A stretch of 23,728 nucleotides of DNA. It comes from Nitrosopumilales archaeon. GTDB lineage: Archaea > Thermoproteota > Nitrososphaeria > Nitrososphaerales > Nitrososphaeraceae. Both the position numbers and the translations under genes were made by a program. This document shows positions 1 through 22,558 of this stretch, piece after piece (positions within the stretch are counted from its first letter, which is position 1; each line of letters starts with the position of its first letter). A model generated the notes under the pieces. That model ran no database searches. It was not told where the DNA came from and was given only the letters and a program-made list of their open reading frames with translations. Location of the stretch: the NCBI GenBank assembly GCA_044507735.1, contig JBIQJB010000029.1, positions 1 to 23,728 on the forward strand, read 5' to 3'.

Positions 1-55
1 ATGAAAAAAGCTAGGACAGTCCTAGCTTTACGCATTACCCTAAGTTAACAGAGCC
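1..55 (-). mobile_element. Probable terminal inverted repeat/end of an IS6-family-like insertion interrupting the DUF1156 gene
   Basis: Minus strand from 55 reads GGCTCTGTTAACTTAGGG, resembling IS6-family ends (IS6100 GGCTCTGTTGCAAA, IS26 GGCACTGTTGCAAA); it starts where the methylase frame turns into GLC*. No transposase is visible in the window. Confidence 0.5.
7..29. repeat. Perfect 11-bp-arm palindrome AAAGCTAGGAC-A-GTCCTAGCTTT, followed on the minus strand by a T-run (terminator-like)
   Basis: Read directly from 7-17 and 19-29. Confidence 0.75.
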
Positions 56-935
56 CTTCTGGTGTTGGTAATTCATAATACTTCCCGCCCTTGACTTTTG
101 TTACGATTGCAATCAATTCTCTATCTTTGAATTTGGATATTGCCTTGGTAATCTGTTCCCGATCTATACTATTCCTGCATCTGATGCAGATAGCCTTGCC
201 ATTTTTCTGGGTAAAACTATTTCCTTCCTTTAGGCTTAAGTTGTAATCTATATGCACACTGAAGTCATGATTCTTGTTGACCAGAAACTTGACTCCTGTC
301 CTTCTTCCCTTTCCCCTAGCTAACCACATATTGTTTGTTAATGGAAATCGCTGATTACAATAGGGGCATCGCATACACCACATCCAGACATAAGCAAGAG
401 CCTTATTTTCAGCTCTATCAAAATATGGATGCAGTTCTTTCCTACATCTGTCAATTACTTCATATCCAAATTTTTCAACATCTTCTACAAGTCTCTGTCC
501 ATACTTAGTAGGGAAATATAGACTCCCGTTCATTATCAAGTATGCTAGTGGATTGTAGTCCATTGCTACGCAGTTTAAGCCCAATTCTTTAGCTTCAAAA
601 ATAAGATTACCCGCTCCAGCAAAGGGATCAAGTACATTAATTTCCTTAGGATTTTTCTTTATTTGCTTGGCATAGACCTCTAAATTAGGTTTAAAATTGA
701 AAGCAGGTTTGTCTCTAGAGAGACCCAGCAATGAACTGATTACATTGATGTTATCCAAAGTACTGGCCAAAACTACTGCTCGACCTACAATTAGTGGCTT
801 TCTAGTCCACCAGTAGTGGATCTCATTTATCGGCGGCTTTGCATTACCTAGTTTTTCCCTTCTTGCCTCTGTACTGACCGAGGAAAATAGTTTGACTAAA
901 TCTATTGTCTCTTCCTCGATGACTGTATTATTCAT
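45..935 (-). pseudogene. DUF1156-family adenine-specific DNA methylase, N-terminal part, apparently truncated
   Basis: IHYWWTRKPL (DUF1156 signature), SAM-binding VLDPFAGAG, DYNPLAY, zinc-ribbon CPYC/CIRC; about 300 aa whereas family members are usually about three times longer and carry a C-terminal DPPY motif, absent here. ATG 935 preferred over 968 because it overlaps the end of the upstream gene. Confidence 0.8.
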
Positions 936-1278
936 AGAGGGATCTCCACGCCTTTCCAGTTCTCTCATTTGTCATGAATTTGCTGGCCCAAAAATGAACT
1001 TCCATCCCACTCAGAGATTCTACTGTACTGATAAACTGCATTGCTTCATGCATGTTTCTCGCGCATTTCAGAACTTGCAATCCGACAAACATCCTCGCGA
1101 CATTTTCATTCCATTCCTTTGATTCAAAGGTCAGATGCTTTAGTGCAAAGTCCTTTCTCCATCCCTTTACATACGATAGATTGAACGCCTTCTTTCCGAA
1201 CCTATCGTCAACTTCTATCTTCATTACCGCGGATTTACCGCTCTTGCTTTCTGAAAGGAGGTGGTTGAAATTCCTCAT
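928..1278 (-). CDS. Small protein of the DUF499-DUF1156 system (DUF3780-like position)
   Basis: 116 aa; ATGA overlap with the DUF499 stop; C-terminal LSGMEVHFWASK...AWRSLY resembles the xEEaxYW..K/Ralr.l motif of small proteins in this operon slot. Confidence 0.7.
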   Translation of the reverse strand: MRNFNHLLSESKSGKSAVMKIEVDDRFGKKAFNLSYVKGWRKDFALKHLTFESKEWNENVARMFVGLQVLKCARNMHEAMQFISTVESLSGMEVHFWASKFMTNERTGKAWRSLYE

Positions 1279-3980
1279 GTCTTTGAGACCTTGATCTTGT
1301 ACTTTGTGAATTCGTTGGTAAGATCGGTATCTGATGTGACTATGACACTACCATTACCACTGTATCTATTCATGAGAGATTGAATCAGACTCTTGATCTC
1401 TGGTATTCCAGCGGGATTGGTATCAATGCTTATGGTATCGGTTTCTGTCCTCATTGAAACGTGAAGCTGTGACCTGACACTGCTCCCAACTATAATGACA
1501 GGTAATGTTTGAAGTACAGCAAAGAGTTCCTTGAGATCATGGCAGCTTATTGAATAATGATACTCGGGTTTCCCACCAAGTTGCTCTTGCGATCCTCGTT
1601 CATTTTCAGCCACCTGTTGTTCTTTGGAAGATACTTGTTCGGACTTGGAGTATACGCGGTCTTTCTTTATGATCCAGCCACTCCAGTTTACGAATGCAAT
1701 GTTTTCACCTATTCTAGCGACATACTTGCCCTCATTCTGAACCGGCTCATGTTCTTCCGAATATCCGAAAGTACCTTGTTTTACGCCTTCTTGAACTGCT
1801 TCAAGTATTACTTTTCCATTTAGAATCAGACGCTTGCTCTTGTCCTTTTTGAATAGAGCGTATACATCCTCTACCCGCGCCTTATCTTCTATCATATCAG
1901 ATAGCACATCTGGAAGGAGCTTGTCTACTAACTGTCCTTTCTTGCGGAGTAACTCGAGTATCGCTCCTGTCAGGTCTCTGCTTTTAGTATCAAGAGTAGA
2001 GATGGCATCGCTCCTAAGGTCATTAAGATGAGAATATGCTACCTTGGAGTATACATTCATGCACTCAGATTTTAGATTGCCCTGAGCATGGTTTAGCCTG
2101 TCCCTTACTATGGGCATATTATTTTTGTCAAGTTTGATGCGCTCATCTTTTTGGGCCTTTTCTATTGCACAGACAAGCTTGGCGCTCTCGACTAGAGATT
2201 CAACTCCAAACCGATCTGCGTAGATGAAAACCAGTGTGTTCTGATAGTCTCTAATGTCCCCATTTGGCCTGTATTCGATCAAGGGTTTTAGATATTCCTT
2301 GTAATTATCTTCATTGATTTTTTCCTCGTAGTTGACTGCAAATATTTTCAACTTGTCATTGTCTTCGACCATCTCCCTATCCCACAGGATCACATTTACT
2401 CCATCCTGGGGTGGCAAGAGTGAGTCGAGTGTCTCGTAGATCTTGTCCTTAGTCTCCCTAGGAGAAACCTCTTGGGCATAGTCATAGATAATCTTGTTAA
2501 TGCTTGGTTCCTTGTCAAAGTAGAATTCAGTACCTTCTTGCTTCAGATACCAATACTGCTTTGACATATCGTCAAGGGCCTCCTCAATAGTATCAGGGTC
2601 AATCCCTGGATAACACACTCCTAATTGGAGTTCGCTCTTTTTTATCCCAGATTTTCTGCTGCTTCCTATGATCGAGTAAATGTAAATTGTTCTTGCCATT
2701 CGCTCAAAGACCTTGATGTTTCTTTTTTCATCTAATGCCTTTGACTTTTTTATGCAGTCACTTTCAATGACCGGCTTGTAATCCGCCATGTCTATCTTTG
2801 AGGTCAGCTCTTCTTGGATCTCCTTGTCCTCGAGCTGAACATCAGCTGTGCTTACCAATTGGCAATTTTCCTTGTTGGTGTTCAAATTGCGAAGGACCAG
2901 TGCTAGTAGTCGTAGAATACCTCTTGTCCTGTTGAACTTTTCTACAGTAGATACTCGTTCATAGAGGACATCGATTAGGAACGGATGAAAGGGGTATGCC
3001 TTTCGAAGATTCACTTGAAAATCTGGATCTACTGGTATTCCCTTTTCCACATAGTATTTGTAGTATTCTTCAGTTACTTTTGCCGCAACATTCTGATTGA
3101 ATTCCTTGACAAGTCGCGTTCTTATCACATCATAGACCTCTTTTTTCTCGACTGGTGCTTTGAATTGCACTTGGCGTGAGAGAACGTCTCTCAGGTTATC
3201 GACTATAGTATCTACGCGATAGTCCCGGATCGACTTTAACGACTCTCTGAGCTTCTCTGTATATCGTTCGTAAAGCTGCTGCTTTGCAGTGAACGTCATG
3301 ATAAGCACAGAGTTCTTGCTGGCTGAAACTGCACTAATCAGGTTTAGGATAAATCCGATTGTCAAATCTGCTAGTGTTACCTTGCCGACCTGCTCTGCGT
3401 CTGCGGTTAGCAAGAAATGCGGCAATTCATCGATTAGCAAAAGTGTAGGCTTGTCAAAGAGCGCTTTGATCATTCCGATGTCTTTAATCGGCTGCTTGGC
3501 CCTGTCAAGCTCCTGCATCTCTTTGTATCTGCCCAAAGAGTCTGCAATCTCGCCCCAGAGAGTGTTCTTTGTCAACCTCCTGCAATCAATGGCTACAACG
3601 TTGGTCTGTGGGACATCGGCTATGTCATAGTCTTTATGCAGATTGTATTTCTTGATATAATCCCTGCCAAGGTCTTTGTTTTTGAACAGATGGTAAAGAA
3701 GGAGTATCGTGTGGGTTTTTCCACCGCCAAACTCTGTATCAATAATATATGCAGGTTGCCCTTCGCCGCGGGATACCCTCACGAGGGCATCCTTCAGGAT
3801 GAGTTTCGCGTTTGAAGTCAGAAATGTATTCTTCAAAAAGAGCTTTGGATCTTTGTAAATATCGGCTGCTGAGCCGTCCAAAACAGAATGCAGTTCAACT
3901 GCAAATTTGCTATAATCGAGCTGGTTATTGATTATTTCGTCGCTGAATTTGCATGTCTTCCAGACACTATGAGCATCCAT
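1275..3980 (-). CDS. DUF499-family AAA+ ATPase (restriction-like/BREX-related defence ATPase)
   Basis: 901 aa; Walker A TEFGGGKTH, TLWGEIA, Walker B LLLIDE, YPFHP, FNRTRGILRLLA, all typical of DUF499; adjacent to DUF1156. Confidence 0.9.
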   Translation of the reverse strand: MDAHSVWKTCKFSDEIINNQLDYSKFAVELHSVLDGSAADIYKDPKLFLKNTFLTSNAKLILKDALVRVSRGEGQPAYIIDTEFGGGKTHTILLLYHLFKNKDLGRDYIKKYNLHKDYDIADVPQTNVVAIDCRRLTKNTLWGEIADSLGRYKEMQELDRAKQPIKDIGMIKALFDKPTLLLIDELPHFLLTADAEQVGKVTLADLTIGFILNLISAVSASKNSVLIMTFTAKQQLYERYTEKLRESLKSIRDYRVDTIVDNLRDVLSRQVQFKAPVEKKEVYDVIRTRLVKEFNQNVAAKVTEEYYKYYVEKGIPVDPDFQVNLRKAYPFHPFLIDVLYERVSTVEKFNRTRGILRLLALVLRNLNTNKENCQLVSTADVQLEDKEIQEELTSKIDMADYKPVIESDCIKKSKALDEKRNIKVFERMARTIYIYSIIGSSRKSGIKKSELQLGVCYPGIDPDTIEEALDDMSKQYWYLKQEGTEFYFDKEPSINKIIYDYAQEVSPRETKDKIYETLDSLLPPQDGVNVILWDREMVEDNDKLKIFAVNYEEKINEDNYKEYLKPLIEYRPNGDIRDYQNTLVFIYADRFGVESLVESAKLVCAIEKAQKDERIKLDKNNMPIVRDRLNHAQGNLKSECMNVYSKVAYSHLNDLRSDAISTLDTKSRDLTGAILELLRKKGQLVDKLLPDVLSDMIEDKARVEDVYALFKKDKSKRLILNGKVILEAVQEGVKQGTFGYSEEHEPVQNEGKYVARIGENIAFVNWSGWIIKKDRVYSKSEQVSSKEQQVAENERGSQEQLGGKPEYHYSISCHDLKELFAVLQTLPVIIVGSSVRSQLHVSMRTETDTISIDTNPAGIPEIKSLIQSLMNRYSGNGSVIVTSDTDLTNEFTKYKIKVSKT

Positions 3981-8575: not shown

Positions 8576-9679
8576 TTACAACTTTTCTGCTGAACGCAAG
8601 TTAGAATCAACCAATATGTTCTGCTGGAGTGATTTGAGAATCTCTGTTATCCTTTTACAATTCTGTTCAAAATCCGGCCTAAAATAATGTCTTGCAAACA
8701 CAGTTCTTGGAAGCCGTCCTTGGAGTAAATCAATAACCTCTTGTTCTATGCCATTAATCCTAAGGTATGTGCCAAATATCTTTCTGCAATATCCCATCTG
8801 CATATCGAGGCCGCGACGCTTGAGGTAGTTCCTGAGCGCATTGTATCCACAGTTATTGGCATCTTTGGCAAGCTGAATAATCTGATTGCTTGCGATAGAG
8901 ATGAAGGCCTTTTTGCTGTTCCTGATGAATATGGCAGGATACTTGTAATGTTCCAGTACCATGGTATCTCTCCTGAGATAGTTGTCAAAGTCGGTTTGGA
9001 TTAGGGAAATACTCTGACATACCTCATTTGGACGCAATCCTACCAAAGTCGCATAAAGTAGAATGTTGGCGTAATCGTCAGGTATCTTACTGCAGACGCT
9101 CCTTAGCCATACCATCATAGAAGAAAAGTCCTTTTCCGAGTTGATTAGAGAGTTGAAAATCTCCAAGCTATCCTGGGTAGTCCATTTGAGCTGGTAACGT
9201 TCCTTTATCTCTCGCCACTGGTCATAGCAACCAAGATACTTTGAAAGCGCTACAAGGGCTTCCATGGCATGATGTCTCTTAAAGCCAGAGATTGTAAGAA
9301 GCTCGCTGGCATTCCCTGTTTGGAGAATGTGGCCGTAGCGCTTGGCGCATAGCAATACTTGCTTGGAATTCCTGCGGCCCTGTGCGGAGAGGTAATGCTT
9401 GAAACCCTCAATCTTGTTCTCCACTAATAGCGAACTGTTCTCCACTAATGGAGAAGTGGGAGCTGGCTGAGCAGTACCCTGCAGTCCGGTCCAGTATGGG
9501 GGAATGGCACGACTTTCACGATTTTGTTGTAATTCTCTGGCAGCGTAAGCTCTATTGTTGGGAAAAGTAAGAGCGCCCGGGCCGGGACTATCGGTCGGTG
9601 TCGAACCGACTTTCGAACCCGGGTCGGAGGAGTGACAGTCCCCCATACTGGACCGGACTGTACGATTCTGGCTGTTCAC
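8576..9679 (-). CDS. SSV1-type tyrosine integrase, C-terminal fragment (intC) whose frame runs through tRNA-Asp
   Basis: Catalytic motifs GLRPNE, IRNSKKAF, GYCRKIF, DLLQGR, VFARHY; the 5' part of the ORF overlaps the tRNA gene, the hallmark of integrase gene partition by SSV-type integration. The GTG at 9679 lies in the tRNA intron and is probably not the real start. Confidence 0.88.
   Translation of the reverse strand: MNSQNRTVRSSMGDCHSSDPGSKVGSTPTDSPGPGALTFPNNRAYAARELQQNRESRAIPPYWTGLQGTAQPAPTSPLVENSSLLVENKIEGFKHYLSAQGRRNSKQVLLCAKRYGHILQTGNASELLTISGFKRHHAMEALVALSKYLGCYDQWREIKERYQLKWTTQDSLEIFNSLINSEKDFSSMMVWLRSVCSKIPDDYANILLYATLVGLRPNEVCQSISLIQTDFDNYLRRDTMVLEHYKYPAIFIRNSKKAFISIASNQIIQLAKDANNCGYNALRNYLKRRGLDMQMGYCRKIFGTYLRINGIEQEVIDLLQGRLPRTVFARHYFRPDFEQNCKRITEILKSLQQNILVDSNLRSAEKL
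9415..9455. repeat. 14-bp direct repeat TGTTCTCCACTAAT (9415-9428, 9436-9449; 21-bp period), second copy within hairpin TTCTCCA-CTAA-TGGAGAA
   Basis: Read directly; encodes LVEN twice in the integrase frame. Confidence 0.8.
9482..9510 (+). repeat. Inverted copy of tRNA-Asp segment 9632-9660 (22 bp perfect, 27/29 overall)
   Basis: Plus 9482-9503 CAGTCCGGTCCAGTATGGGGGA equals minus-strand 9660-9639; continues ATGGCAC vs CTGTCAC. Confidence 0.92.
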
Positions 9680-10043: not shown

Positions 10044-10925
10044 ATGCCACAATGCATCGCCTTTCACTCTTACAAGGGAGGAACCGGCAAGACAACTATC
10101 GCAAGCAACCTTGCCGTCCTTCTTGCCGCAAAAGGCTCCAGTGTGGCACTAATCGACGTAGATGTTTATGCCCCAAGCCTTCAGGCCTATTTTGAACATA
10201 CACCCAGCAAATGGCTCAACGACTTCTTGTCCGATAACGCCACTCTTCAGGAGGTAATGATTGAAATGACTTCTGTTGTTAGCAACAGCTTAGAAATATC
10301 CAGCCTACTGGACAGCATCAAGGGAAAGCTATGGGTAGCATATTCAAATCCTCAGAAGGAAGCCATATACAGTCTTGAGGCCGGCAAGACCACCAACACT
10401 CCTCCAATACAGCTTTTGCGACGTTTTATCAAGCTCCGGGAAGATCTGATTACAGAATACGACTGCGACTATATCATCATGGATACGAGCCCGGGCATAA
10501 GGTACTGGTCGATCAACTCGCTTGCAATTGCAGACATATTGCTACTCACTCTAAAATTTGGCGACCTTGACATTGAGGGAACCCAGAAAATGGCAAATGA
10601 AATATACAAATCGTTTACCCAGTTTGGCGCCAAGTCCTACCTGCTATTGAACAAAGTGGCGGGCTACTGCATCCCCATCTCCGCCGCCACTGGTACCGCG
10701 TCCCCAGAGTCCGGAGAAAATCATCTGGAAAACACACTTGTTCAGGATGTATCTGACTACGACAGCCTGTCCAGACAGGTCAACATGGACCTGATTTCGG
10801 CCATTCCATGTTACTGCGACATACAGTTCAAGAGAAAAGAATTCCTCACAGTTCTGAAATATCCTACGCATCCATTTACGACTCAATTGAACCATCTTGC
10901 ATCATCCAAGATGATCAGGGGTTGA
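10044..10925 (+). CDS. MinD/ParA-family ATPase
   Basis: Deviant Walker A SYKGGTGKTT, LIDVD, IIMDTSPG, LLNKV; no obvious C-terminal amphipathic membrane-targeting helix. Confidence 0.9.
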   Translation: MPQCIAFHSYKGGTGKTTIASNLAVLLAAKGSSVALIDVDVYAPSLQAYFEHTPSKWLNDFLSDNATLQEVMIEMTSVVSNSLEISSLLDSIKGKLWVAYSNPQKEAIYSLEAGKTTNTPPIQLLRRFIKLREDLITEYDCDYIIMDTSPGIRYWSINSLAIADILLLTLKFGDLDIEGTQKMANEIYKSFTQFGAKSYLLLNKVAGYCIPISAATGTASPESGENHLENTLVQDVSDYDSLSRQVNMDLISAIPCYCDIQFKRKEFLTVLKYPTHPFTTQLNHLASSKMIRG

Positions 10926-10931
10926 CGTGAC

Positions 10932-12368
10932 ATGACAACAACAGTAGCAAATGACGAAAAGCTTTCATCCTTTCCGGAGTTATCCTGTTTTGTCCAGGAC
11001 ATCCCCTCCAGCCTGAAGGGCACGATCCTTGTCTATGGACCACCGGGCATCGGCAAGACTACATACTGCAGAGAATTCATCGAAGACGGCCTCCGGAGGG
11101 GAGAGCCCTGCATCTTTGTCAGCGGAGGATTGGGCAGAGATGAGTTGCAGGCTCTCTTTCCGGATGTAGACGGCGATCTCTTGGAGCTTGTCGACATGCA
11201 TACGATATTCAGTGCGGCAGATGCTCCAGGCCAGCTTATCAGCATACTAGAGGAGAGCATCGCTTCTCTGAAAAAGAGGAGGCGGACGCTGCCGGCGGCG
11301 GCTCGCCTTGTCATCGACTCATTGACCCATCTTCTCATACTGGTCGAAGAAAGGGAGCTCTTACGGCTTGTGATGAACCTGACTCTGCTAGTAAAAGATA
11401 TCGAGGCAAGGGCTGTCCTTACACTTTCCACATTTGATGAAAACTTTCTCGCCAAGCTGGGCCCCCTGGTGGATGGGGCAATAGAGCTCAAAGTGGAGGA
11501 ATCCGCCGGCGCAGTCATCAGGCGTGCGCGCATGCCATTTTTCAAGGGCATCCATCACAGTAGGGACTGGATCAACTTTGAAATAACAAAGGACGGAAGG
11601 CTGGCATTTTCCAAAGCATCTGCAAGCCCACCTACCTGCGTCCTGTGCGGTAAGGAAATAGCAGGAATGCCCCTGATCGAATCTAATTTCATTTTTGACA
11701 GGCAGGTCTGCATAGACACATACATGAAACTGAGAAGCGCCTATGGCTCCAGGATATCAGATGCCGGCCTGCCAGCAGAGGTTCTTGACGCTCACTTCTT
11801 TTTTGTCGATATCGTTGGCCTCTCTGACCCATCGCTCTCTGTCAAGAAGCAGGTTCAGAAGATCAACATTCTCAATTCCATGATTGGCTCGTGTCATTCG
11901 TTTAAAAAGACAGCTGCTGAAAAGAAAATAATCCTGCCGTCAGGAGATGGTATGGCGATAGGCTTTCTCCTGGACCCAGAGCTCCCTCTTGCACTCAGCA
12001 TCGAGCTACACAAGAAAATACGGGCCTTTAACAGCACAAGACCGCTGGAGGACAGGATAGAGGTACGCATAGGGCTGGGCTCGGGACCCATCTTTACTGT
12101 CAGCGACATAAACGGCATGCAGAACGTCTGGGGGCCTGGAATAATACTGGCCAGGAGAGTGATGGACGCCGGCGACAGCTATCACATATTGCTGGAGGGA
12201 AACATTGCAGAGAAACTGATTGCTCTAAAGGACGAATACCGAGAGACAATCAGGCAGATTTCATGCGACTTTGAGATCAAGCACGGCCAGAAAATTAGGT
12301 TATACTCGGCCTGTTCGCACGAATTTGGCAACCCCGAAATTCCGGCAAGAGCATCCAATGCAAATTGA
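10932..12368 (+). CDS. KaiC/RAD55-like ATPase fused to a TRASH-like Cys domain and a class III nucleotidyl cyclase domain
   Basis: GPPGIGKT, RLVIDS, LVDGAIEL (KaiC-like); CVLCG...FDRQVC (TRASH-like); FFVDIVGLS, PSGDGMAIGF, VRIGLGSGP, NVWGPGIILARRVMD (class III cyclase fold). Confidence 0.85.
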   Translation: MTTTVANDEKLSSFPELSCFVQDIPSSLKGTILVYGPPGIGKTTYCREFIEDGLRRGEPCIFVSGGLGRDELQALFPDVDGDLLELVDMHTIFSAADAPGQLISILEESIASLKKRRRTLPAAARLVIDSLTHLLILVEERELLRLVMNLTLLVKDIEARAVLTLSTFDENFLAKLGPLVDGAIELKVEESAGAVIRRARMPFFKGIHHSRDWINFEITKDGRLAFSKASASPPTCVLCGKEIAGMPLIESNFIFDRQVCIDTYMKLRSAYGSRISDAGLPAEVLDAHFFFVDIVGLSDPSLSVKKQVQKINILNSMIGSCHSFKKTAAEKKIILPSGDGMAIGFLLDPELPLALSIELHKKIRAFNSTRPLEDRIEVRIGLGSGPIFTVSDINGMQNVWGPGIILARRVMDAGDSYHILLEGNIAEKLIALKDEYRETIRQISCDFEIKHGQKIRLYSACSHEFGNPEIPARASNAN

Positions 12369-13636: not shown

Positions 13637-14002
13637 ATGCCAGAAGAACCAATGAACGGCAAGGGCGCCACGTGTGCAGTAGCGGGCGTCTGGGAAGTGC
13701 TTGGAAGGAGATGGTCGCTTCACATCCTGAAGAATCTGAGCACCAAAGAAGTCATCAGGTTCAACGAGCTGAAGAGGTCGCTTGCGGGCATCAGCAGTAC
13801 CGTGCTGTCAGAACGCCTGCTTGAACTGGAGCGGGAGGGCCTTGTGACCAAAAAGATCTATCCGGAAGTTCCGCCGAGGGTAGAATACAGCATGACTCCT
13901 CAGGCAAAGGAGCTTGAAGTGATAATAAAAGAATTGGCCCGATGGGCCGACAAGTGGAAGAACCCATCAGGATTGAAGGTGGCTGCGCAGAAAAAAATCT
14001 AG
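13637..14002 (+). CDS. HxlR-family winged-helix transcriptional regulator with N-terminal Cys
   Basis: CAV...VLGRRWSLHIL, RFNELKRSL.GIS..VLSERL.ELE..GLV, YPEVPPRVEYSMT. Confidence 0.92.
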   Translation: MPEEPMNGKGATCAVAGVWEVLGRRWSLHILKNLSTKEVIRFNELKRSLAGISSTVLSERLLELEREGLVTKKIYPEVPPRVEYSMTPQAKELEVIIKELARWADKWKNPSGLKVAAQKKI

Positions 14003-14667
14003 CGCAACTTTTGGAACCGCTTCTCCTGCGCGGTGACCACTCCTATTTCTACGACTGACCGCTCGCCCAGCGCCTTTTCTATTGCCCTGGTGCTCAGGTC
14101 TACCGCTTGCTCCACACTCATATCCGCGCTGTAGTCGCGCTGCACCACGTCAAGTGCAAGGTCTGACGACTGGCCTATCGCAAAGCCAGAGCCGCGCATA
14201 AATGTGCCACTCGGGTCGACCTGGTACAGCTGCACGCCCGTCTGGTCTACGCCTGCAACAATGACTGAAGCTGCCTGCGGCCTGACAGCATAGATGGTGT
14301 AGTTGTGCAGGAACGATCCAAGGTGCTTTGCAAGCGACCCGACATCTATCGGGCTCTCGAAGTTGAGCCTGTGCTTCTGCGCCTCCATCCTCAGCTCCTC
14401 TATCAGCTGAAGTATGTCGCCGATGTATCCAGAGCCTGTCGCCCCGACGTGCCTGTCTATGGTAAAGATCTTTTCGGCAGGGTCTATCAGCGGTCTGACG
14501 GGCTTGATGTGGCTTGCCAGCAGAGCAAACGACGGCGTCTTCAAACCTATTGTCGTCGATCCTCTTCTGACCGCTTCCAGCGCGCTGTCTACCAGCACCA
14601 GACGGCCTTCGGGCCCGTAAAAGTACGGGTACCTTGCTCCGTAGCTTCCTGCTGTTGCCTCGGCCAT
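13999..14667 (-). CDS. psmA: 20S proteasome alpha subunit (divergent paralog)
   Basis: GPEGRL...EAVRRGSTTIG, EKIFTIDRHVG, VRP, LYQVDPSG, AIG; N-terminal YDR motif altered. Confidence 0.88.
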   Translation of the reverse strand: MAEATAGSYGARYPYFYGPEGRLVLVDSALEAVRRGSTTIGLKTPSFALLASHIKPVRPLIDPAEKIFTIDRHVGATGSGYIGDILQLIEELRMEAQKHRLNFESPIDVGSLAKHLGSFLHNYTIYAVRPQAASVIVAGVDQTGVQLYQVDPSGTFMRGSGFAIGQSSDLALDVVQRDYSADMSVEQAVDLSTRAIEKALGERSVVEIGVVTAQEKRFQKLR

Positions 14668-14668
14668 G

Positions 14669-15250
14669 CTACTGCCTTGCCACCTCCTGCACTACCAGAT
14701 TCGGGATGACCAGCACGTCGATGCCGTTGCCAGATCCCGGGTCGCGCTCCATCGCAGCCGAGACTGCCTTTGTTGCGACCTGCTTTGCTTCTTCGTTCGT
14801 TATCTCCTTGTGGTACATGCTTTCAAGCACACCGTATGCTATCGGCGACCCCGAGCCGGAGGAAGCAAAGTCCTCGCTGGTTATGGCACCGCTCATGTCT
14901 GCTGCATAGATGTGCCCGCCTTCTTGGTCGACGCCGGCCACCAGCAGTTCAACAAAGTACGGCTGGTAGTTCTTCATGCCCGAGTATGCCAGATTTGCGA
15001 TCAGCCTGGCAGATTCTCTGACAGTCAGAGGGAACCCTCTGCGGAGCTCTATCAGCTGGCGCTCCGCCTTGGCCACCTTGATCAGGTATTCTGCGTCTGA
15101 CAGCTGACCCGCTATCGCAACTGCGAGTGTGTCGTCTATCTTGGCTATCTTTTGTGTTATCTTTGACCCGATGAAAAAGCCCTTGCTGGCGCGCTTGTCA
15201 GAGCCCAGCACGACTCCTTCTCGTGTCTTTATGCCCACGATCGTTGTCAT
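14669..15250 (-). CDS. psmB: 20S proteasome beta subunit, apparently without propeptide
   Basis: MTTIVG; Thr1, Asp17 (SDKR), Lys33 (TQK), SGSGS, RDPGSG intact; ATG 15250 lies 26-32 nt below a TATA-like ATTTACA in a promoter shared with htrA. Confidence 0.92.
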   Translation of the reverse strand: MTTIVGIKTREGVVLGSDKRASKGFFIGSKITQKIAKIDDTLAVAIAGQLSDAEYLIKVAKAERQLIELRRGFPLTVRESARLIANLAYSGMKNYQPYFVELLVAGVDQEGGHIYAADMSGAITSEDFASSGSGSPIAYGVLESMYHKEITNEEAKQVATKAVSAAMERDPGSGNGIDVLVIPNLVVQEVARQ

Positions 15251-15259
15251 GTTGACATA

Positions 15260-15311
15260 GTATAGGAAGTCAGGGTGTAAATTGACCGGCAATGCCGGAA
15301 AACGGTCACAG
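15260..15311 (-). promoter_or_regulatory. Conserved promoter/operator copy 1 (TGACCG-N14-CGGTCA plus ATTTACA) upstream of psmB
   Basis: 26 bp identical to 17549-17574 (GGAAGTCAGGGTGTAAATTGACCGGC) plus shared CGGTCACAG. Confidence 0.85.
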
Positions 15312-15417
15312 ATAGCGGCATCTCTTTGGTATGGTCGTCGAAGTGCTTTCTCGCCCTTCACAGGTTGGTGCTAGAGAAACGAAAAAGCTCTCTGCCGTCA
15401 CTGACAGGCGAAGCTAG

Positions 15418-15424
15418 AAAAAAA
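15418..15424 (-). terminator. Oligo-T terminator candidate after the wHTH gene
   Basis: T7 on the minus strand about 20 nt after the 15443 stop. Confidence 0.4.
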
Positions 15425-15442: not shown

Positions 15443-16186
15443 TCAGTTGTTGTGGCTGAATGCCAGCGACCTGTCTGTATACGCGCCGATCTTGCTCTGC
15501 ATCACTCTTGCTATTTGCTCGTATATCGCGTATGATCCTACCATCGCCTCCACCTTCTCCTTCTCGGTCGACGCGTTGGTCTCGATTATGATGTAGTCAG
15601 AGATCATGCGGAGGTTTATCTGGAACGATCCATCTTCGCTGGACCATTGAAGAGTGTAACCTGTGTCGCTTTCGATCATGCCAAGCCACCGGAGGTTCTT
15701 AAACCACCTGCCAACAAGCTGGCTCACTATTTCAAACGCCTTGATGTTTAGCGGGATGTAGGTCTGCAATAGCTGCATGTATTCCCTGCCTTTTGGCCTG
15801 CGTAAATCCATCCTTGCAACTGCGGATTCGCTCCCCTTGACTAGGCGGTAGCCGACCTGCGACTTTTCCACAAGCCCCAATTCCTCAAGCCTGCGGAGCG
15901 CCCTTGACAAGCTCTGCTGGTGAAGTCCCACCTTGCGCATCAACCCCTTAAAGGAGTAGTTCGACCCGGATTCTTCATTCAGCGCGGACAAAATCCTGCT
16001 ATCGTTGTTGTGCAAATCGTCTAATACTGAGAGTGGCTCTTTTTCCTGCACCAGCACCTGAGCTGACTTGCCAGTAATGACCTCATTTTCACTCACTGGA
16101 GAAGAAGCCTCTGGCTGGCTGCTCCCCTCCTCCTTGAGAGATGTATTGTTATGCTCCGAGTCACTCTTCACTTGCATCACTATCAT
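15443..16186 (-). CDS. MarR-like winged-helix protein with acidic N-terminal extension and C-terminal alpha/beta domain
   Basis: YSFKGLMRKVGLHQQSLSRALRRLEELGLVEKSQVGYRL. Confidence 0.8.
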   Translation of the reverse strand: MIVMQVKSDSEHNNTSLKEEGSSQPEASSPVSENEVITGKSAQVLVQEKEPLSVLDDLHNNDSRILSALNEESGSNYSFKGLMRKVGLHQQSLSRALRRLEELGLVEKSQVGYRLVKGSESAVARMDLRRPKGREYMQLLQTYIPLNIKAFEIVSQLVGRWFKNLRWLGMIESDTGYTLQWSSEDGSFQINLRMISDYIIIETNASTEKEKVEAMVGSYAIYEQIARVMQSKIGAYTDRSLAFSHNN

Positions 16187-16598: not shown

Positions 16599-17537
16599 TC
16601 ATGGGCGCTTGTCCACCTGCACAGGGACCTGGAGCTGGCGCCCGTAGCGATTGACAGTCAGAGTCAGCCGATCGTCCACGCGTTTCTTGCGCACGTGCGA
16701 TGCTATCTGCGATGGATCCTCCACCCTGCTGCCATCAATCCCCTCGATGATGTCACCCTTTCTCAATCCAGCATCGTCGGCGGGGCTGTATGGCTCTACC
16801 CGGGCAACCAGCGCCCCTTCGGTAACTGGAAGCCCATAGTAGCGGGCAAGCTGTGGAGTGACCTTAATTGATGCGACGCCTATCCACGGCCTGGCAACTT
16901 TGCCCCTTTCGATCAGTTCCTTGAGTATTGACTTGGCAGTATTCACCGGAACCGCAAAGCCAATGCCCTGCGCATAGGGCATGTTGGCGGTGTTGATTGC
17001 AACCACCTGACCCTTTGTGTTGACAAGCGGCCCTCCGGAGTTGCCTGGGTTGATCGCGGCATCTGTCTGAATTAGGTCAAGCACGCCGCCACTCCTTACC
17101 TGTATTGTACGGTTCAATGAACTTACAATTCCTGCTGTGACAGCTGGCCCTCCAGTGAGCCCAAATGGGTTTCCGATTGCCATGACAATCTGGCCGACCT
17201 TCAGGTCGTCTGAATTGCCAAGCTCTGCTGCCGGCAGTGGCTCTTCTGCCTCTACCTTTATCACGGCAAGATCTGTGGCTTCGTCGCTTCCGACGACTTT
17301 GCCCCTCAGCACCTTGCCGTCTGCGAGGGTAACCTTGAGCCTCTCCGCGTCATCGATAACATGGTTGTTCGTAAGTATGTAGCCCTTCTCGTCGATCACC
17401 ACTCCGGACCCGACGCCCTCTACAGGGAACACCCTGAAGAGGTGGTCTTGCAGTATCCGAACGCTGGCGATGTTGACTACGCTCTTGCTGATCTTGTCCA
17501 CAGCGCTTACAAGCACTTCTTCGGGAACGGGTATCAT
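16599..17537 (-). CDS. htrA: HtrA/DegP-family serine protease with one PDZ domain, no signal peptide
   Basis: GSGVVI, TNNHV, DLAVIK, AIGNPFG, IQTDAAINPGNSGGPL, C-terminal PDZ (SPADDAGLRKGDII). Confidence 0.93.
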   Translation of the reverse strand: MIPVPEEVLVSAVDKISKSVVNIASVRILQDHLFRVFPVEGVGSGVVIDEKGYILTNNHVIDDAERLKVTLADGKVLRGKVVGSDEATDLAVIKVEAEEPLPAAELGNSDDLKVGQIVMAIGNPFGLTGGPAVTAGIVSSLNRTIQVRSGGVLDLIQTDAAINPGNSGGPLVNTKGQVVAINTANMPYAQGIGFAVPVNTAKSILKELIERGKVARPWIGVASIKVTPQLARYYGLPVTEGALVARVEPYSPADDAGLRKGDIIEGIDGSRVEDPSQIASHVRKKRVDDRLTLTVNRYGRQLQVPVQVDKRP

Positions 17538-17543
17538 GTCATT

Positions 17544-17595
17544 GTATTGGAAGTCAGGGTGTAAATTGACCGGCTATTGGAAAACCCGGTCACAG
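17544..17595 (-). promoter_or_regulatory. Conserved promoter/operator copy 2 upstream of htrA
   Basis: Near copy of 15260-15311 with identical TGACCG-N14-CGGTCA spacing. Confidence 0.85.
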
Positions 17596-18098: not shown

Positions 18099-19607
18099 TC
18101 AGCTCACGTTGACTGTTCCGACCATGTTCGGGTGGACCGCGCAGTAGTACGGGTATTCGCCTGCTTCTTCAAACGTGTGCTCGAATGTCTGCTGCGGAGC
18201 CAGCAACGGGTTGAGGTTTGGCGAAGAGTCAAATTTGCCGTCCGGCTGGGCGTTGGTACCCGAGGTCACCGTGTGTGGCGTGGTATCGTGATTGGTCCAC
18301 TTCACCGTGTCTCCGACGCTGATCTCAACAGGGTTGGGGTCGAACGCATCGGTGGTCTTGCTCGTGGAGCCAGATGTTATTGATACTTCGACTGTGTTTC
18401 CTCCGCCTCCACCGCTTGGGCCAGCTGCCGGAGCAGGGGTGGTGGTAGTTGTGGTTGTTGTCTCGTTTCCTGCTGATGCTGCTCCTGCTGTCTCGTTTCC
18501 TGTCGCGTTACCTGCTGGTGTTGCCGGAGGCGCTGTCTGGTTGCCGGTCACGTTGCCGGTAGGTGCAGCGGCCATGCCGCCCGTAGCATTGGGGGCTGCT
18601 GGCGCGGTTGGAGCCATCGGCTGTGGTTCGGCCGGTGTCTCGGCACCGGGCTCAGGCGGCAGTACAGACTGCCTCTCACCATTCACTTCCCCTATTAGCG
18701 CAGTAACAAACCCGTAGATTGGCATGCCCTTGAAGTGGTTGTCGGTCGAATCATTGTCCACGTTGATGGTTACGACCCTGCCTGTGCTTTCTATCGTGAT
18801 TGGAACGTTCTCCCACTGCAGGTTGTTGTCGAGGTACACGTTGGCCGAGCCATAAATCTCAAAGGTACCATCTTCAGCAAGCGTAGCCTGGGCAAAAGCA
18901 GTCTCGGTTCCGGATTCCGCTGGCGCAGTTGCGTTTGGTGTCACTGCCGGAGGCGCTGTCTGGTTGCCGGTCACGTTGCCTATAGTAGTGGTAGTAGTCG
19001 CATTGCCAGTCTCGTTACCGCCTGTGATGATCTGCATGAAACTCTCCACATTGGTCGCATTGCCTGCATCTGTCGCAGCGGTGGTGTTTCCGCCAGCAGC
19101 AGTCATGTTGCTGCCGCCTGCAGTAGCATTGGACGTGGCAGTTTCGCCCGTCCCTGCGGTAAAGTTGTCTACAAGCACTGTATGGAAATCGCTGCCATCA
19201 GGCTTTGACATCATCATGTTGATCTCAACCTTCCGCGCTTCGCCGTCAATTACATCGATGCTCAACCTCCCGCCTACTACTTCTGCAGAAGCATTATCCC
19301 CGCTAGCAGGGTCTGATATGATGCTGGAGATTAGCCCTCTGACATAAAACGTATTGATTTCACCTGCTGCCGTGGCATTAGTTCCACCAGCGCCGGTAGT
19401 AGCAGTCTGGTTGTCCATGGAAGTGACATTGCCAGCGCTCGCGGTAGTAGTAGCATTACTGGTCGATGCCGTGACATTGTCTGTCGGGGCCGTGCCAGTG
19501 ATATTCTGTCCAGCTACAAGAGAATAGCCGGCTATGCTGAATGCAAAAGTGCCAAGCAGGGCAACTATTGCAAACGCTCTAAATAGAGTCTGGTACTGCG
19601 TTCTAAT
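18099..19607 (-). CDS. Large secreted/surface Thr-Ala-Asn-rich protein with C-terminal plastocyanin-like cupredoxin domain
   Basis: C-terminal HTVTSG...YYCAVHPNM type-1 Cu site; many NxT sequons; frame stays open 63 codons upstream of ATG 19418 and encodes a signal-peptide-like stretch starting at ATT 19607 (start uncertain). Confidence 0.82.
   Translation of the reverse strand: MRTQYQTLFRAFAIVALLGTFAFSIAGYSLVAGQNITGTAPTDNVTASTSNATTTASAGNVTSMDNQTATTGAGGTNATAAGEINTFYVRGLISSIISDPASGDNASAEVVGGRLSIDVIDGEARKVEINMMMSKPDGSDFHTVLVDNFTAGTGETATSNATAGGSNMTAAGGNTTAATDAGNATNVESFMQIITGGNETGNATTTTTIGNVTGNQTAPPAVTPNATAPAESGTETAFAQATLAEDGTFEIYGSANVYLDNNLQWENVPITIESTGRVVTINVDNDSTDNHFKGMPIYGFVTALIGEVNGERQSVLPPEPGAETPAEPQPMAPTAPAAPNATGGMAAAPTGNVTGNQTAPPATPAGNATGNETAGAASAGNETTTTTTTTPAPAAGPSGGGGGNTVEVSITSGSTSKTTDAFDPNPVEISVGDTVKWTNHDTTPHTVTSGTNAQPDGKFDSSPNLNPLLAPQQTFEHTFEEAGEYPYYCAVHPNMVGTVNVS
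18522..18980. repeat. 36-bp exact direct repeat (18522-18557, 18945-18980) encoding GNVTGNQTAPPA
   Basis: TGCCGGAGGCGCTGTCTGGTTGCCGGTCACGTTGCC occurs twice. Confidence 0.85.
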
Positions 19608-19745: not shown

Positions 19746-20330
19746 CTATGGCCGGTATCGGGCCGCAAAAGTGTCCTGCTCGCTCGATCCTAGATCCTGC
19801 TTGAACTGATTGCCGATTAGCATTCCGTACACCACAAGGTCCCGTGACATCATTTGCAGGCGCTGCGCTATCCTCGGGTTTACGATCTTGCCATCGGAGA
19901 AATCCTGAGGTCCGTTTATGGATACGCCGTAGGGAAGGCTCCAGCCATAGCACTGGCGCACCGCAGTGCGCATCTGGTCCATCACGGTCAAGCCTTTCTC
20001 ATGGGACGCAACGATGTAGCCAAAGAGCTTGCCTGCAAACTCTTCGTAAAAGTAGTCGAGAAAGTTCTTTAGCGCGCCGGACATGGAGCCATGGTAATCT
20101 GGCGACGCCAGGATGATTGCGTCAGCCCAAGCTACCGATTCGCTTGCGTTTCCCACCTCTTTTGATGCCGGTGCATTTGGATCGTAGAGCGGCAGGTTGT
20201 CTATTTCCAAGAGCCGCACTTGCGCACCGTGCTTTGTTGCATGTTCTAATGCTATCTGGAGCGCCTGTTTGCTGTACGACCCGTCGCGTATGCTCCCAGC
20301 CACTCCAAGGACGTTGAATGTTGTTCTCAT
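19746..20330 (-). CDS. NADPH-dependent FMN reductase
   Basis: GSIRDGSYS, LPLYD, ASPDYHGSMSGALKNFLD, FAGK. Confidence 0.92.
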   Translation of the reverse strand: MRTTFNVLGVAGSIRDGSYSKQALQIALEHATKHGAQVRLLEIDNLPLYDPNAPASKEVGNASESVAWADAIILASPDYHGSMSGALKNFLDYFYEEFAGKLFGYIVASHEKGLTVMDQMRTAVRQCYGWSLPYGVSINGPQDFSDGKIVNPRIAQRLQMMSRDLVVYGMLIGNQFKQDLGSSEQDTFAARYRP

Positions 20331-20356: not shown

Positions 20357-20390
20357 GATTAATCGACCGGCTCTGACGCAACATGGTCAC
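20357..20390 (-). promoter_or_regulatory. Degenerate third copy of the operator (plus strand CGACCG-N14-TGGTCA, with minus-strand ATTAAT) upstream of FMN reductase
   Basis: 20364-20369 and 20384-20389, same 14-bp spacer and similar distance (34 nt) from the ATG. Confidence 0.65.
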
Positions 20391-22141: not shown

Positions 22142-22558
22142 ATGGTCAACAAGACTGCCATAGTGATCGCATCGATTGCAACAATCATTGGTGCGGTCGT
22201 GGCTACTTACTTTCTGTCCGGCAGCACGAATAGTGAGGCGGAGGGATCTCGAAATTCAGTACAACAGCCCATCGTTACATCCATCCCTGAGAATTCAACA
22301 GTAGTAAAAATAGTCGCCAACTCTGGAAGCAATTCGTTCAGCCCGAACCCTGTTGAGATCAAAGTCGGCGAGACTGTGACGTGGCTAAACGATGATTCTG
22401 GCAGGCATACTGTAACTGCAAAGGATGGCGTTTTCGAATCCGAATTGATGGGAAAGGGACAATCATTCATCTACACTTTTGACAGAGAAGGAGAGTATTC
22501 GTACTTTTGCGAACCCCATCCAAACATGGTGGGCACAGTGGTGGTGACAAAAAGCTAA
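22142..22558 (+). CDS. Membrane-anchored plastocyanin-like blue copper protein
   Basis: N-terminal hydrophobic helix; FSPNPVEIKVGETVTW, HTVT, YFCEPHPNM. Confidence 0.92.
   Translation: MVNKTAIVIASIATIIGAVVATYFLSGSTNSEAEGSRNSVQQPIVTSIPENSTVVKIVANSGSNSFSPNPVEIKVGETVTWLNDDSGRHTVTAKDGVFESELMGKGQSFIYTFDREGEYSYFCEPHPNMVGTVVVTKS

Follow-up and report, generated by a model that had tools for sequence, protein, structure and literature searches.

A propeptide-free beta and a gate-divergent alpha subunit encoded in tandem on a Nitrososphaeraceae contig: a candidate accessory 20S proteasome

Self-cleavage of the beta subunit is the textbook route to proteasome activation, and the Y-D-R/Pro/Tyr cluster of the alpha subunit is the textbook gate. 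Here, we report two adjacent proteasome genes on the minus strand of a 23,728-nucleotide stretch of a Nitrosopumilales archaeon (GTDB family Nitrososphaeraceae; GenBank assembly GCA_044507735.1, contig JBIQJB010000029.1, positions 1 to 23,728; hereafter, the window). They belong to a natural, conserved family, expressed as protein, which retains the catalytic machinery, appears to have dropped beta self-cleavage, and has a rewritten alpha gate motif. The first gene (14669..15250) encodes a 193-residue beta subunit that opens with M-T-T and lacks a propeptide, as assigned by homology and start comparison; the second (13999..14667) encodes a divergent alpha subunit of 222 residues, assigned by PF00227 (its sole Pfam match), a structure model, and alignment. 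We consider it likely, at a probability of about 60%, that the two form a separate accessory 20S particle, in which beta would become competent through removal of its initiator Met and assembly, the alpha ring would be gated differently, and expression would be switched together with that of an HtrA-like protease.

Both frames are open on the minus strand (GTG 15361 to TAG 14669 and ATG 14667 to TAG 13999). On the DNA, the beta stop codon (TAG, 14671..14669) is followed by a single base (14668) and then by the alpha ATG (14667), which confirms the 1-nucleotide (nt) spacing given in the original prediction, made from the letters of the window before any database search. Pfam E-values of 8.7e-50 (beta) and 1.7e-41 (alpha) for PF00227 exclude a chance match to the proteasome family. 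A Shine-Dalgarno-like GGAGGTG lies within the 3' end of beta (14681..14687, minus strand), 13 nt 5' of the alpha ATG, and a terminator-like run of seven T residues, of the archaeal kind, stands immediately after the alpha stop (13991..13997, minus strand). For comparison, 80 related loci were taken from one-genome-per-species contigs, with the beta N-terminus on the contig in 71; the family range that they give is a lower bound, and Nitrososphaera viennensis falls outside the set, as its own sequence does not fit the search patterns. Wherever a locus includes upstream DNA, beta is the gene directly 5' of alpha, at a gap of -1 to +3 nt in 60/69 loci, with a GGAGG-type 5-mer no more than 22 nt 5' of alpha in 59/69; a run of five or more T residues follows alpha within 40 nt in 28/66. 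We propose that beta-alpha is a bicistronic unit for a second, accessory 20S-type proteasome, with alpha translated off the same RNA through the Shine-Dalgarno-like site.

The in-frame ATG at 15250 gives M-T-T-I-V-G; when this is aligned with the mature Archaeoglobus fulgidus beta chain (1j2q_H), the Thr next to the Met falls on residue 1. Immediately 5' of this Thr1, a start codon was found in all 71 loci (ATG in 70, TTG in 1); between the preceding stop and this start, an alternative in-frame ATG, GTG, or TTG is lacking in 42 of the 71, and 14 have an in-frame stop within 8 codons. Translation from GTG 15361, with a 37-residue propeptide cleaved as usual, would agree with the frame being open from that codon in the window and with an N-terminal extension of some kind on 7 of 120 database gene calls (best 120 clusters; the other 113 calls open at [M/V]-T-T, 19 of them printed with V). 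We nevertheless regard this as extremely improbable: GTG 15361 is not the start, because a start codon precedes Thr1 in every locus and 42 have no alternative; the residue before Thr1 would be Met rather than Gly (Gly at position -1 in 0/71 loci); the hypothetical upstream peptides differ between loci, with no conservation; and a conserved promoter element, described below, sits within the stretch. By locus comparison, that stretch (15251..15361, minus strand) is non-coding and carries the promoter. Translation from 15361, which the original prediction had named as the case against a propeptide-free beta, was thus not borne out.

The catalytic set was compared in an alignment of 22 beta orthologs from three clades. 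Thr1, Asp17, Lys33, Gly47, G-S-G-S, and D-x-x-S-G are invariant in 22/22 (T2, D18, K34, G48, and D170/S173/G174 when the Met is counted), and equivalents of Ser129/Asp166/Ser169 of the archaeal beta model (TIGR03634) are present along with Thr1, Asp17, and Lys33; the M-T-T start and intact Thr1/Asp17/Lys33 noted beforehand in one sequence therefore hold across the family. Concerning the further claim that Met removal alone activates beta, locus comparison gives good support to the start at 15250, and the removal itself is the part that we infer: beta would be made propeptide-free, loss of the initiator Met would expose Thr1, and no autocatalytic cleavage would then be needed. According to PMC8665760, propeptide-free beta subunits gain activity in the assembled complex (citing Seemuller 1996), and archaeal propeptides have no known function.

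The partner is a genuine alpha subunit, rewritten at both ends. Its AlphaFold model (predicted template modelling [pTM] score, 0.86) begins with a disordered stretch (residues 1-11), forms the alpha-specific helix H0 over residues 24-35, and has no helix at its C-terminal end; superposition on solved alpha chains gives TM scores of 0.86-0.89 (root mean square deviation, 1.5-2.5 A); an ESM Atlas look-up returned only "proteasome alpha." It scores 163.7 bits on TIGR03633 (equivalog cut-off, 287.35), 174.8 bits on NF003075 (cut-off, 219), and 17 bits on the bacterial model. The alpha N-terminal signature PF10584 did not match the window's alpha even at E<=1. Among nine family members scanned singly, six matched only positions 8-23 of that model (12.9-25.3 bits; cut-off, 27.7) and three, from Nitrososphaera, did not match at all, whereas two canonical alphas matched positions 1-22/23 (53.5 bits for P0567, retrieved independently and identical to N. 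viennensis psmA1; 39.6 bits for P0249).

At residue level, the canonical Y-D-R is replaced in 22/22 family alphas, by x-[GAST]-x-R in Nitrososphaera and by G-R in the other clades; the Arg is invariant, the tail ahead of it varies from about 5 to 17 residues, and a conserved [YM]-P-[YF]-[FY]-Y follows. The reverse-turn Pro is retained except in most Thermoplasmata copies, and V-E-Y-A carries S, F, A, or Y at its Tyr position according to clade, with Ser in the window's alpha. Lys66 (E-K-I) is unchanged in all 25 aligned alpha rows. Family alphas terminate just past the last strand and have no C-terminal helix, while three canonical rows are 10 to 21 residues longer. The alignment thus confirms the partly lost gate motif, the kept pocket Lys, and the short C-terminus that had been proposed. 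From the Thermoplasma literature, we take the replaced positions to be the gate cluster and Lys66 to belong to the pocket for activator C termini. With Y-D replaced by G-R-[YM]-P-[YF]-[FY]-Y and with no C-terminal helix, the alpha pore would probably be gated differently, or less tightly, than that of the canonical particle.

Two explanations that deny the pair a 20S role can be weighed against these data. In one, beta alone forms an HslV-like or Anbu-like assembly, and alpha serves as, e.g., a cap or chaperone. HslV likewise has an M-T-T-I-V start without a propeptide. Propeptides are also missing in the other proteasome-like homologs, as stated in PMC8665760. Such an arrangement appears very unlikely: beta scores 207.4-208.2 bits on the archaeal beta model TIGR03634 (equivalog cut-off, 224) and 19.2 bits on the HslV model TIGR03692 (cut-off, 157.75), alpha has the full alpha fold with H0, and the genes are always adjacent and coupled. 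In the other, the pair is a decaying, functionless duplicate. Both proteins do fall below the NCBIfam equivalog cut-offs, and alpha is called "hypothetical protein" in several NCBI records. There is hardly any room for this account, as identity to the window's proteins across the three clades is 63-96% for beta and 52-93% for alpha with all catalytic residues invariant, and the N. viennensis data show both as detected, regulated proteins, a detection that already contradicts decay.

The related loci form three groups, namely, Nitrososphaera, metagenome-assembled genomes (MAGs) of other Nitrososphaerales/Thaumarchaeota, and MAGs of soil Thermoplasmata/"Methanobacteriota." The window is of Nitrososphaera type: the closest alpha relatives are 89-100% identical, and the named ones include Nitrososphaera MAGs and Candidatus N. 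gargensis Ga9.2; the family is narrow, a representative search giving a few clusters at about 59% identity and then canonical alphas at 29-41%. In quick maximum-likelihood trees (the beta tree built without canonical betas), the divergent alphas form one clade and the betas form one clade (Shimodaira-Hasegawa approximate likelihood ratio test [SH-aLRT] support, 100 each), the alpha stem is long, and canonical thaumarchaeal alphas, N. viennensis psmA1 among them, fall outside the divergent clade. The same four subgroups were recovered for alpha and beta, with a branching order that differs and is mostly poorly supported. The range is most simply read as transfer between the two phyla. The sister of the alpha clade is P0249/P0392, a small group with a canonical N-terminus, at a join that the program flags as long branches meeting. 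Members of this group have a Y-D-R N-terminus; in the body, they are closest to the divergent family, at 41% identity, and share with it a 2-residue deletion ahead of E-K-I. The group could mark the origin of the divergent family. One Thermoplasmata MAG (DASPYU01) carries two winged-helix/beta/alpha modules, on separate contigs (L064 and L079).

A second set of proteasome genes, as the original prediction had proposed, is documented in a congener. Tables for N. viennensis (PMC12542715) list psmA1 (NVIE_005150), psmB1, and psmB2, plus an adjacent psmA2 (NVIE_022230) and psmB3 (NVIE_022240) that adjoin an HxlR-family regulator gene. In the table sequences of PMC11561398, psmA2 has a divergent N-terminus and PF00227 only, psmB3 starts with M-T-T, and the two genes are 3 nt apart, whereas psmA1 has Y-D-R and PF10584 and psmB2 has a 19-residue propeptide with a terminal Gly. 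Sequences and HxlR neighbor of psmA2/psmB3 agree with the window's pair; in the window, the HxlR-family regulator gene (13637..14002, plus strand; HxlR, 1.4e-25) converges with alpha and overlaps it by 4 nt, and among the related loci it is a kept neighbor in Nitrososphaera only. These tables support the proposed second set, at the level of the congener. In protein searches and cluster look-ups, canonical alphas turned up for many Nitrososphaerales, N. viennensis psmA1 among them, and in no case did a single named genome show both alpha types. As a separate observation, N. viennensis psmB1 (NVIE_005320) reads ...M-P-G-A-T-V-V-G, with Ala between the Gly and the first Thr (G-T-T-T in psmB2), and from this sequence psmB1 may be processed differently or inactive.

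The second set is regulated in N. viennensis. For mRNA on air-exposed floating filters versus liquid culture (PMC11561398; transcripts per million [TPM], filter versus liquid), psmA2 rose 5.2-fold (1103 versus 228) and psmB3 rose 13.9-fold (545 versus 42.5), while psmA1 (0.98-fold; 1168 versus 1296), psmB1 (0.72-fold; 658 versus 993), and psmB2 (0.99-fold; 630 versus 692) were flat. The pair is thus minor in liquid culture and reaches mRNA parity with the canonical subunits on air-exposed surfaces, which bears out the description of the pair as inducible. The authors tie the filter response to H2O2/oxidative stress, and the part of their paper available to us does not discuss the proteasome genes. 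Under copper limitation (PMC10030591), the log2 fold change was 0.51 for psmA2 and 0.85 for psmB3, and psmA1 was unchanged. In the proteome (PMC12542715), label-free quantification (LFQ) gave approximately 0.7-1.8e8 for psmA2 and 1.8-5.3e7 for psmB3 in four carbon-replete conditions and 0 for both in three carbon-limited conditions (cluster VII; adjusted P, 1e-14 and 4e-18); psmA1 (about 2-3e9 LFQ), psmB1, and psmB2 belong to a cluster that rises under carbon limitation.

The same measurements bear on the chief alternative, in which the subunits mix into the canonical particle, as do Haloferax alpha2 or the vertebrate immuno-subunits, and alter its properties. PMC13022661 describes two or three alpha or beta genes as frequent in archaea, with alternative subunits raised in some conditions and forming mixed particles; psmA2, at about 1e8 LFQ versus about 2e9 for psmA1, is a minor species in liquid along with psmB3 (PMC12542715), and the psmA2:psmB3 LFQ ratio is about 3:1, not 1:1. 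Set against mixing are the inheritance and divergence of the pair as a unit over two phyla with differing canonical proteasomes, the translational coupling of the genes, and the propeptide-free beta and the alpha without a C-terminal helix, which would differ from canonical subunits at the surfaces facing canonical neighbors. The first two of these points favor a self-sufficient pair and are still compatible with mixing, which we judge rather unlikely.

A dedicated, conserved promoter/operator likewise supports inducibility. The 60 nt 5' of the beta ATG are conserved at the DNA level, not at the protein level, and in the window hold a promoter/operator (15277..15309, minus strand) composed of GTGACC, about 14 nt, CCGGTCAA, and a TATA-like AATTTAC centered at about -30 of the ATG. 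Across loci, the arrangement reads GTGAC[CT], about 14 nt, CCGGTCAA, AATTTAC near -30, and, around -10, a box rich in A and T. One half-site, TGACCG, is the reverse complement of the other, CGGTCA (TGACCG-N14-CGGTCA). A loose form of the pattern occurs no more than 130 nt 5' of beta in 65/71 loci, mostly 56-67 nt from the ATG, against a chance expectation of about 0.011 per 110 nt. The spacing fits leaderless transcripts and places the promoter inside 15251..15361; transcription would begin at or beside the beta ATG (15250) from the TATA-like box about 30 nt 5'. A scan for sigma-70 promoters and hairpin terminators, of a type unsuited to archaeal promoters, gave no excess over shuffles.

The element is shared with a second protease gene. 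A copy (17566..17593, minus strand) lies 56 nt 5' of the ATG of an HtrA/DegP-like serine protease with a PDZ domain (16599..17537, minus strand; Trypsin_2, 1.4e-37; PDZ_2), and the window's beta and HtrA promoters are near-identical across about 45 nt. The element precedes the HtrA-like gene in 27/27 loci and the FMN reductase gene in 17/26, with 0/32 SUI1, 0/24 winged-helix, and 0/14 pirin genes having it; in the window, the copy of the FMN reductase gene (20363..20390, minus strand; 60 nt 5' of the ATG at 20330) is the third and a weaker one. On N. viennensis filters, the HtrA-like protease rose 5.6-fold (TPM, 345 versus 66) and the HxlR gene rose 2.8-fold (410 versus 159) (PMC11561398). Co-induction of FMN reductase was rejected, as the N. 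viennensis ortholog changed 1.06-fold (119 versus 122). We propose that the palindromic operator, which overlaps the promoter, switches the pair and that in Nitrososphaera the same operator also controls the HtrA-like protease gene.

The candidate regulator of the pair is a MarR/ArsR-like winged-helix protein whose C-terminal alpha/beta domain is conserved, encoded next to beta (15443..16186, minus strand; MarR_2, 1.2e-07; HTH_5, 6.9e-07) and parted from the beta promoter by a run of seven T residues past its gene (15418..15424, minus strand). Each of the three clades has a homolog 5' of beta, which in the clades other than Nitrososphaera is 27-31% identical; the winged-helix gene and the pair constitute a three-gene module of soil Nitrososphaerales and soil Thermoplasmata. 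The element occurs in the Thermoplasmata loci too, which have only the winged-helix gene, beta, and alpha in common; among candidate binding factors, the winged-helix protein therefore ranks first, and its binding to the operator is proposed from the co-occurrence of protein and element in all three clades. The model comprises a winged helix and an alpha/beta domain, with whole-chain TM scores of 0.20-0.31 to IclR-type regulators and Rio2 and a target-normalized TM of 0.43-0.50 for region 60-115 against MarR-family structures; such a model suggests, weakly, a two-domain, regulator-like protein and no more. Autoregulation was dropped, as the element is missing from the promoter of the winged-helix gene itself (0/30, 0/9, and 0/13 loci). 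In N. viennensis, the transcript of the ortholog NVIE_022260 reaches a level unusually high for a regulator, rising 4.5-fold from a TPM of 2437 in liquid to 9973 on filters, about 9 times psmA2 (PMC11561398), and the protein may do more than regulate. Between psmB3 and this gene, on the opposite strand, NVIE_022250 encodes an 87-residue predicted membrane protein that has no counterpart in the window and is the most induced gene of the neighborhood on filters (23.7-fold).

Several points weigh against a separate, stress-induced particle under the control of the winged-helix protein. The paralog count comes from the congener N. viennensis and not from the window's own genome, and assembly of psmA2/psmB3-type subunits with each other, or as a particle of their own, is a deduction, as are Met removal and a free, non-acetylated Thr1. 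An open or different gate is likewise read from sequence, with low predicted local distance difference test (pLDDT) values in the tail of the alpha model (<50 for residues 1-11; average, 61 for residues 11-20). The winged-helix fold matches regulators weakly (TM, 0.23), its own gene lacks the element as given above, and the FMN reductase ortholog, whose gene carries the element in 17/26 related loci, is flat in N. viennensis. The label "stress" in the original prediction held in part, with the oxidative-stress signature of the filters and the mild rise under copper limitation on its side; the pair is not a general stress device, because carbon limitation takes both proteins to zero and raises the canonical subunits. 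Literature searches found no biochemical data on the assembly or activity of the pair.

A fuller picture can be put forward tentatively, as a possibility with the odds against it. The winged-helix/beta/alpha genes would be a self-contained, horizontally exchanged "accessory proteasome" cassette of soil archaea, building its own 28-mer without autoprocessing, with a conserved aromatic R-[YM]-P-[YF]-[FY]-Y collar lining the pore where the Y-D-R gate would be, and clearing damaged or unfolded proteins without an ATPase in cells exposed to air and oxidants, on one operator with the HtrA-like protease. If so, the cassette would be an archaeal functional counterpart of HslV or of the vertebrate immunoproteasome. 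Annotation of psmA2/psmB3 in N. viennensis and the existence of extra archaeal subunits in general are already known. The missing propeptide, rewritten gate, module, range, and operator of the family are not described in the literature searched, including the available parts of PMC5666114 and PMC8665760, and other papers or supplements may bear on the point. The pair offers a simple two-gene system for asking what the archaeal propeptide does and how a 20S pore gates without the canonical motif, as well as why soil ammonia oxidizers and soil Thermoplasmata keep a second particle that is raised to parity on air-exposed surfaces. To our knowledge, almost no transcription control is known in this organism group, and the shared operator offers, in the accessory proteasome and the HtrA-like protease, a small regulon open to test.

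The rest of the window is of mixed character. Its left 9-10 kb (with features at 45..3980 and 8576..9679, both minus strand) have a lower G+C content (0.39-0.43 versus 0.47-0.58) and hold an Hma-like defense pair, composed of a DUF1156/HmaB-type methyltransferase and a DUF499/HmaC AAA+ ATPase (2.9e-76), together with an archaeal phage-type integrase and several open reading frames without a family. This part looks like an integrated island; no tRNA genes were found in the window. A ParA/MinD-like ATPase and then a KaiC/RecA-like ATPase follow (10044..12368, plus strand), with weak PADLOC matches only; the two also occur together in one related locus (L001), and the KaiC-like gene occurs alone in another (L003). 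Two proteins with cupredoxin/plastocyanin domains, which are typical of ammonia-oxidizing archaea, flank the regulon region (18099..19418, minus strand; 22142..22558, plus strand).

Among known systems, the best sequence and fold matches of the pair are archaeal and eukaryotic 20S chains. With the canonical archaeal 20S proteasome (Thermoplasma acidophilum and A. fulgidus) it shares the PF00227 fold, the alpha H0 and pocket Lys, and the beta Thr1 set; it differs in a beta without a propeptide and Gly at -1, an alpha without PF10584 positions 1-7 and without the C-terminal helix, genes that are adjacent and coupled with their own regulator and operator, and scores below the equivalog cut-offs. 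In archaea with more than one alpha or beta gene, alternative 20S subtypes (e.g., alpha2 of Haloferax volcanii) are likewise extra subunits beside the main set, raised by condition (PMC13022661). In contrast to Haloferax alpha2, which is a single extra subunit, the family described here is a whole alpha and beta pair, kept as an operon across phyla.

The actinobacterial prcB-prcA genes (Mycobacterium and Rhodococcus) share the beta-then-alpha order within one operon. The bacterial proteasome beta carries a long propeptide, and the window's proteins favor archaeal models (beta, 208 versus 76 bits; alpha, 164 versus 17 bits). HslV shares the M-T-T-I-V start without a propeptide and resembles the pair in being induced by stress; the similarity in sequence is residual only (19 bits versus a cut-off of 158), HslV has no alpha partner, and no HslU-like or other AAA+ gene is conserved beside the pair in the related loci compared. 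Heat-shock induction of HslV is stated in PMC5666114. For the vertebrate immunoproteasome, there is no relation beyond the family, and its subunits keep their propeptides and enter normal alpha rings; the likeness would be a functional analogy only, namely, inducible replacement of constitutive catalytic subunits.

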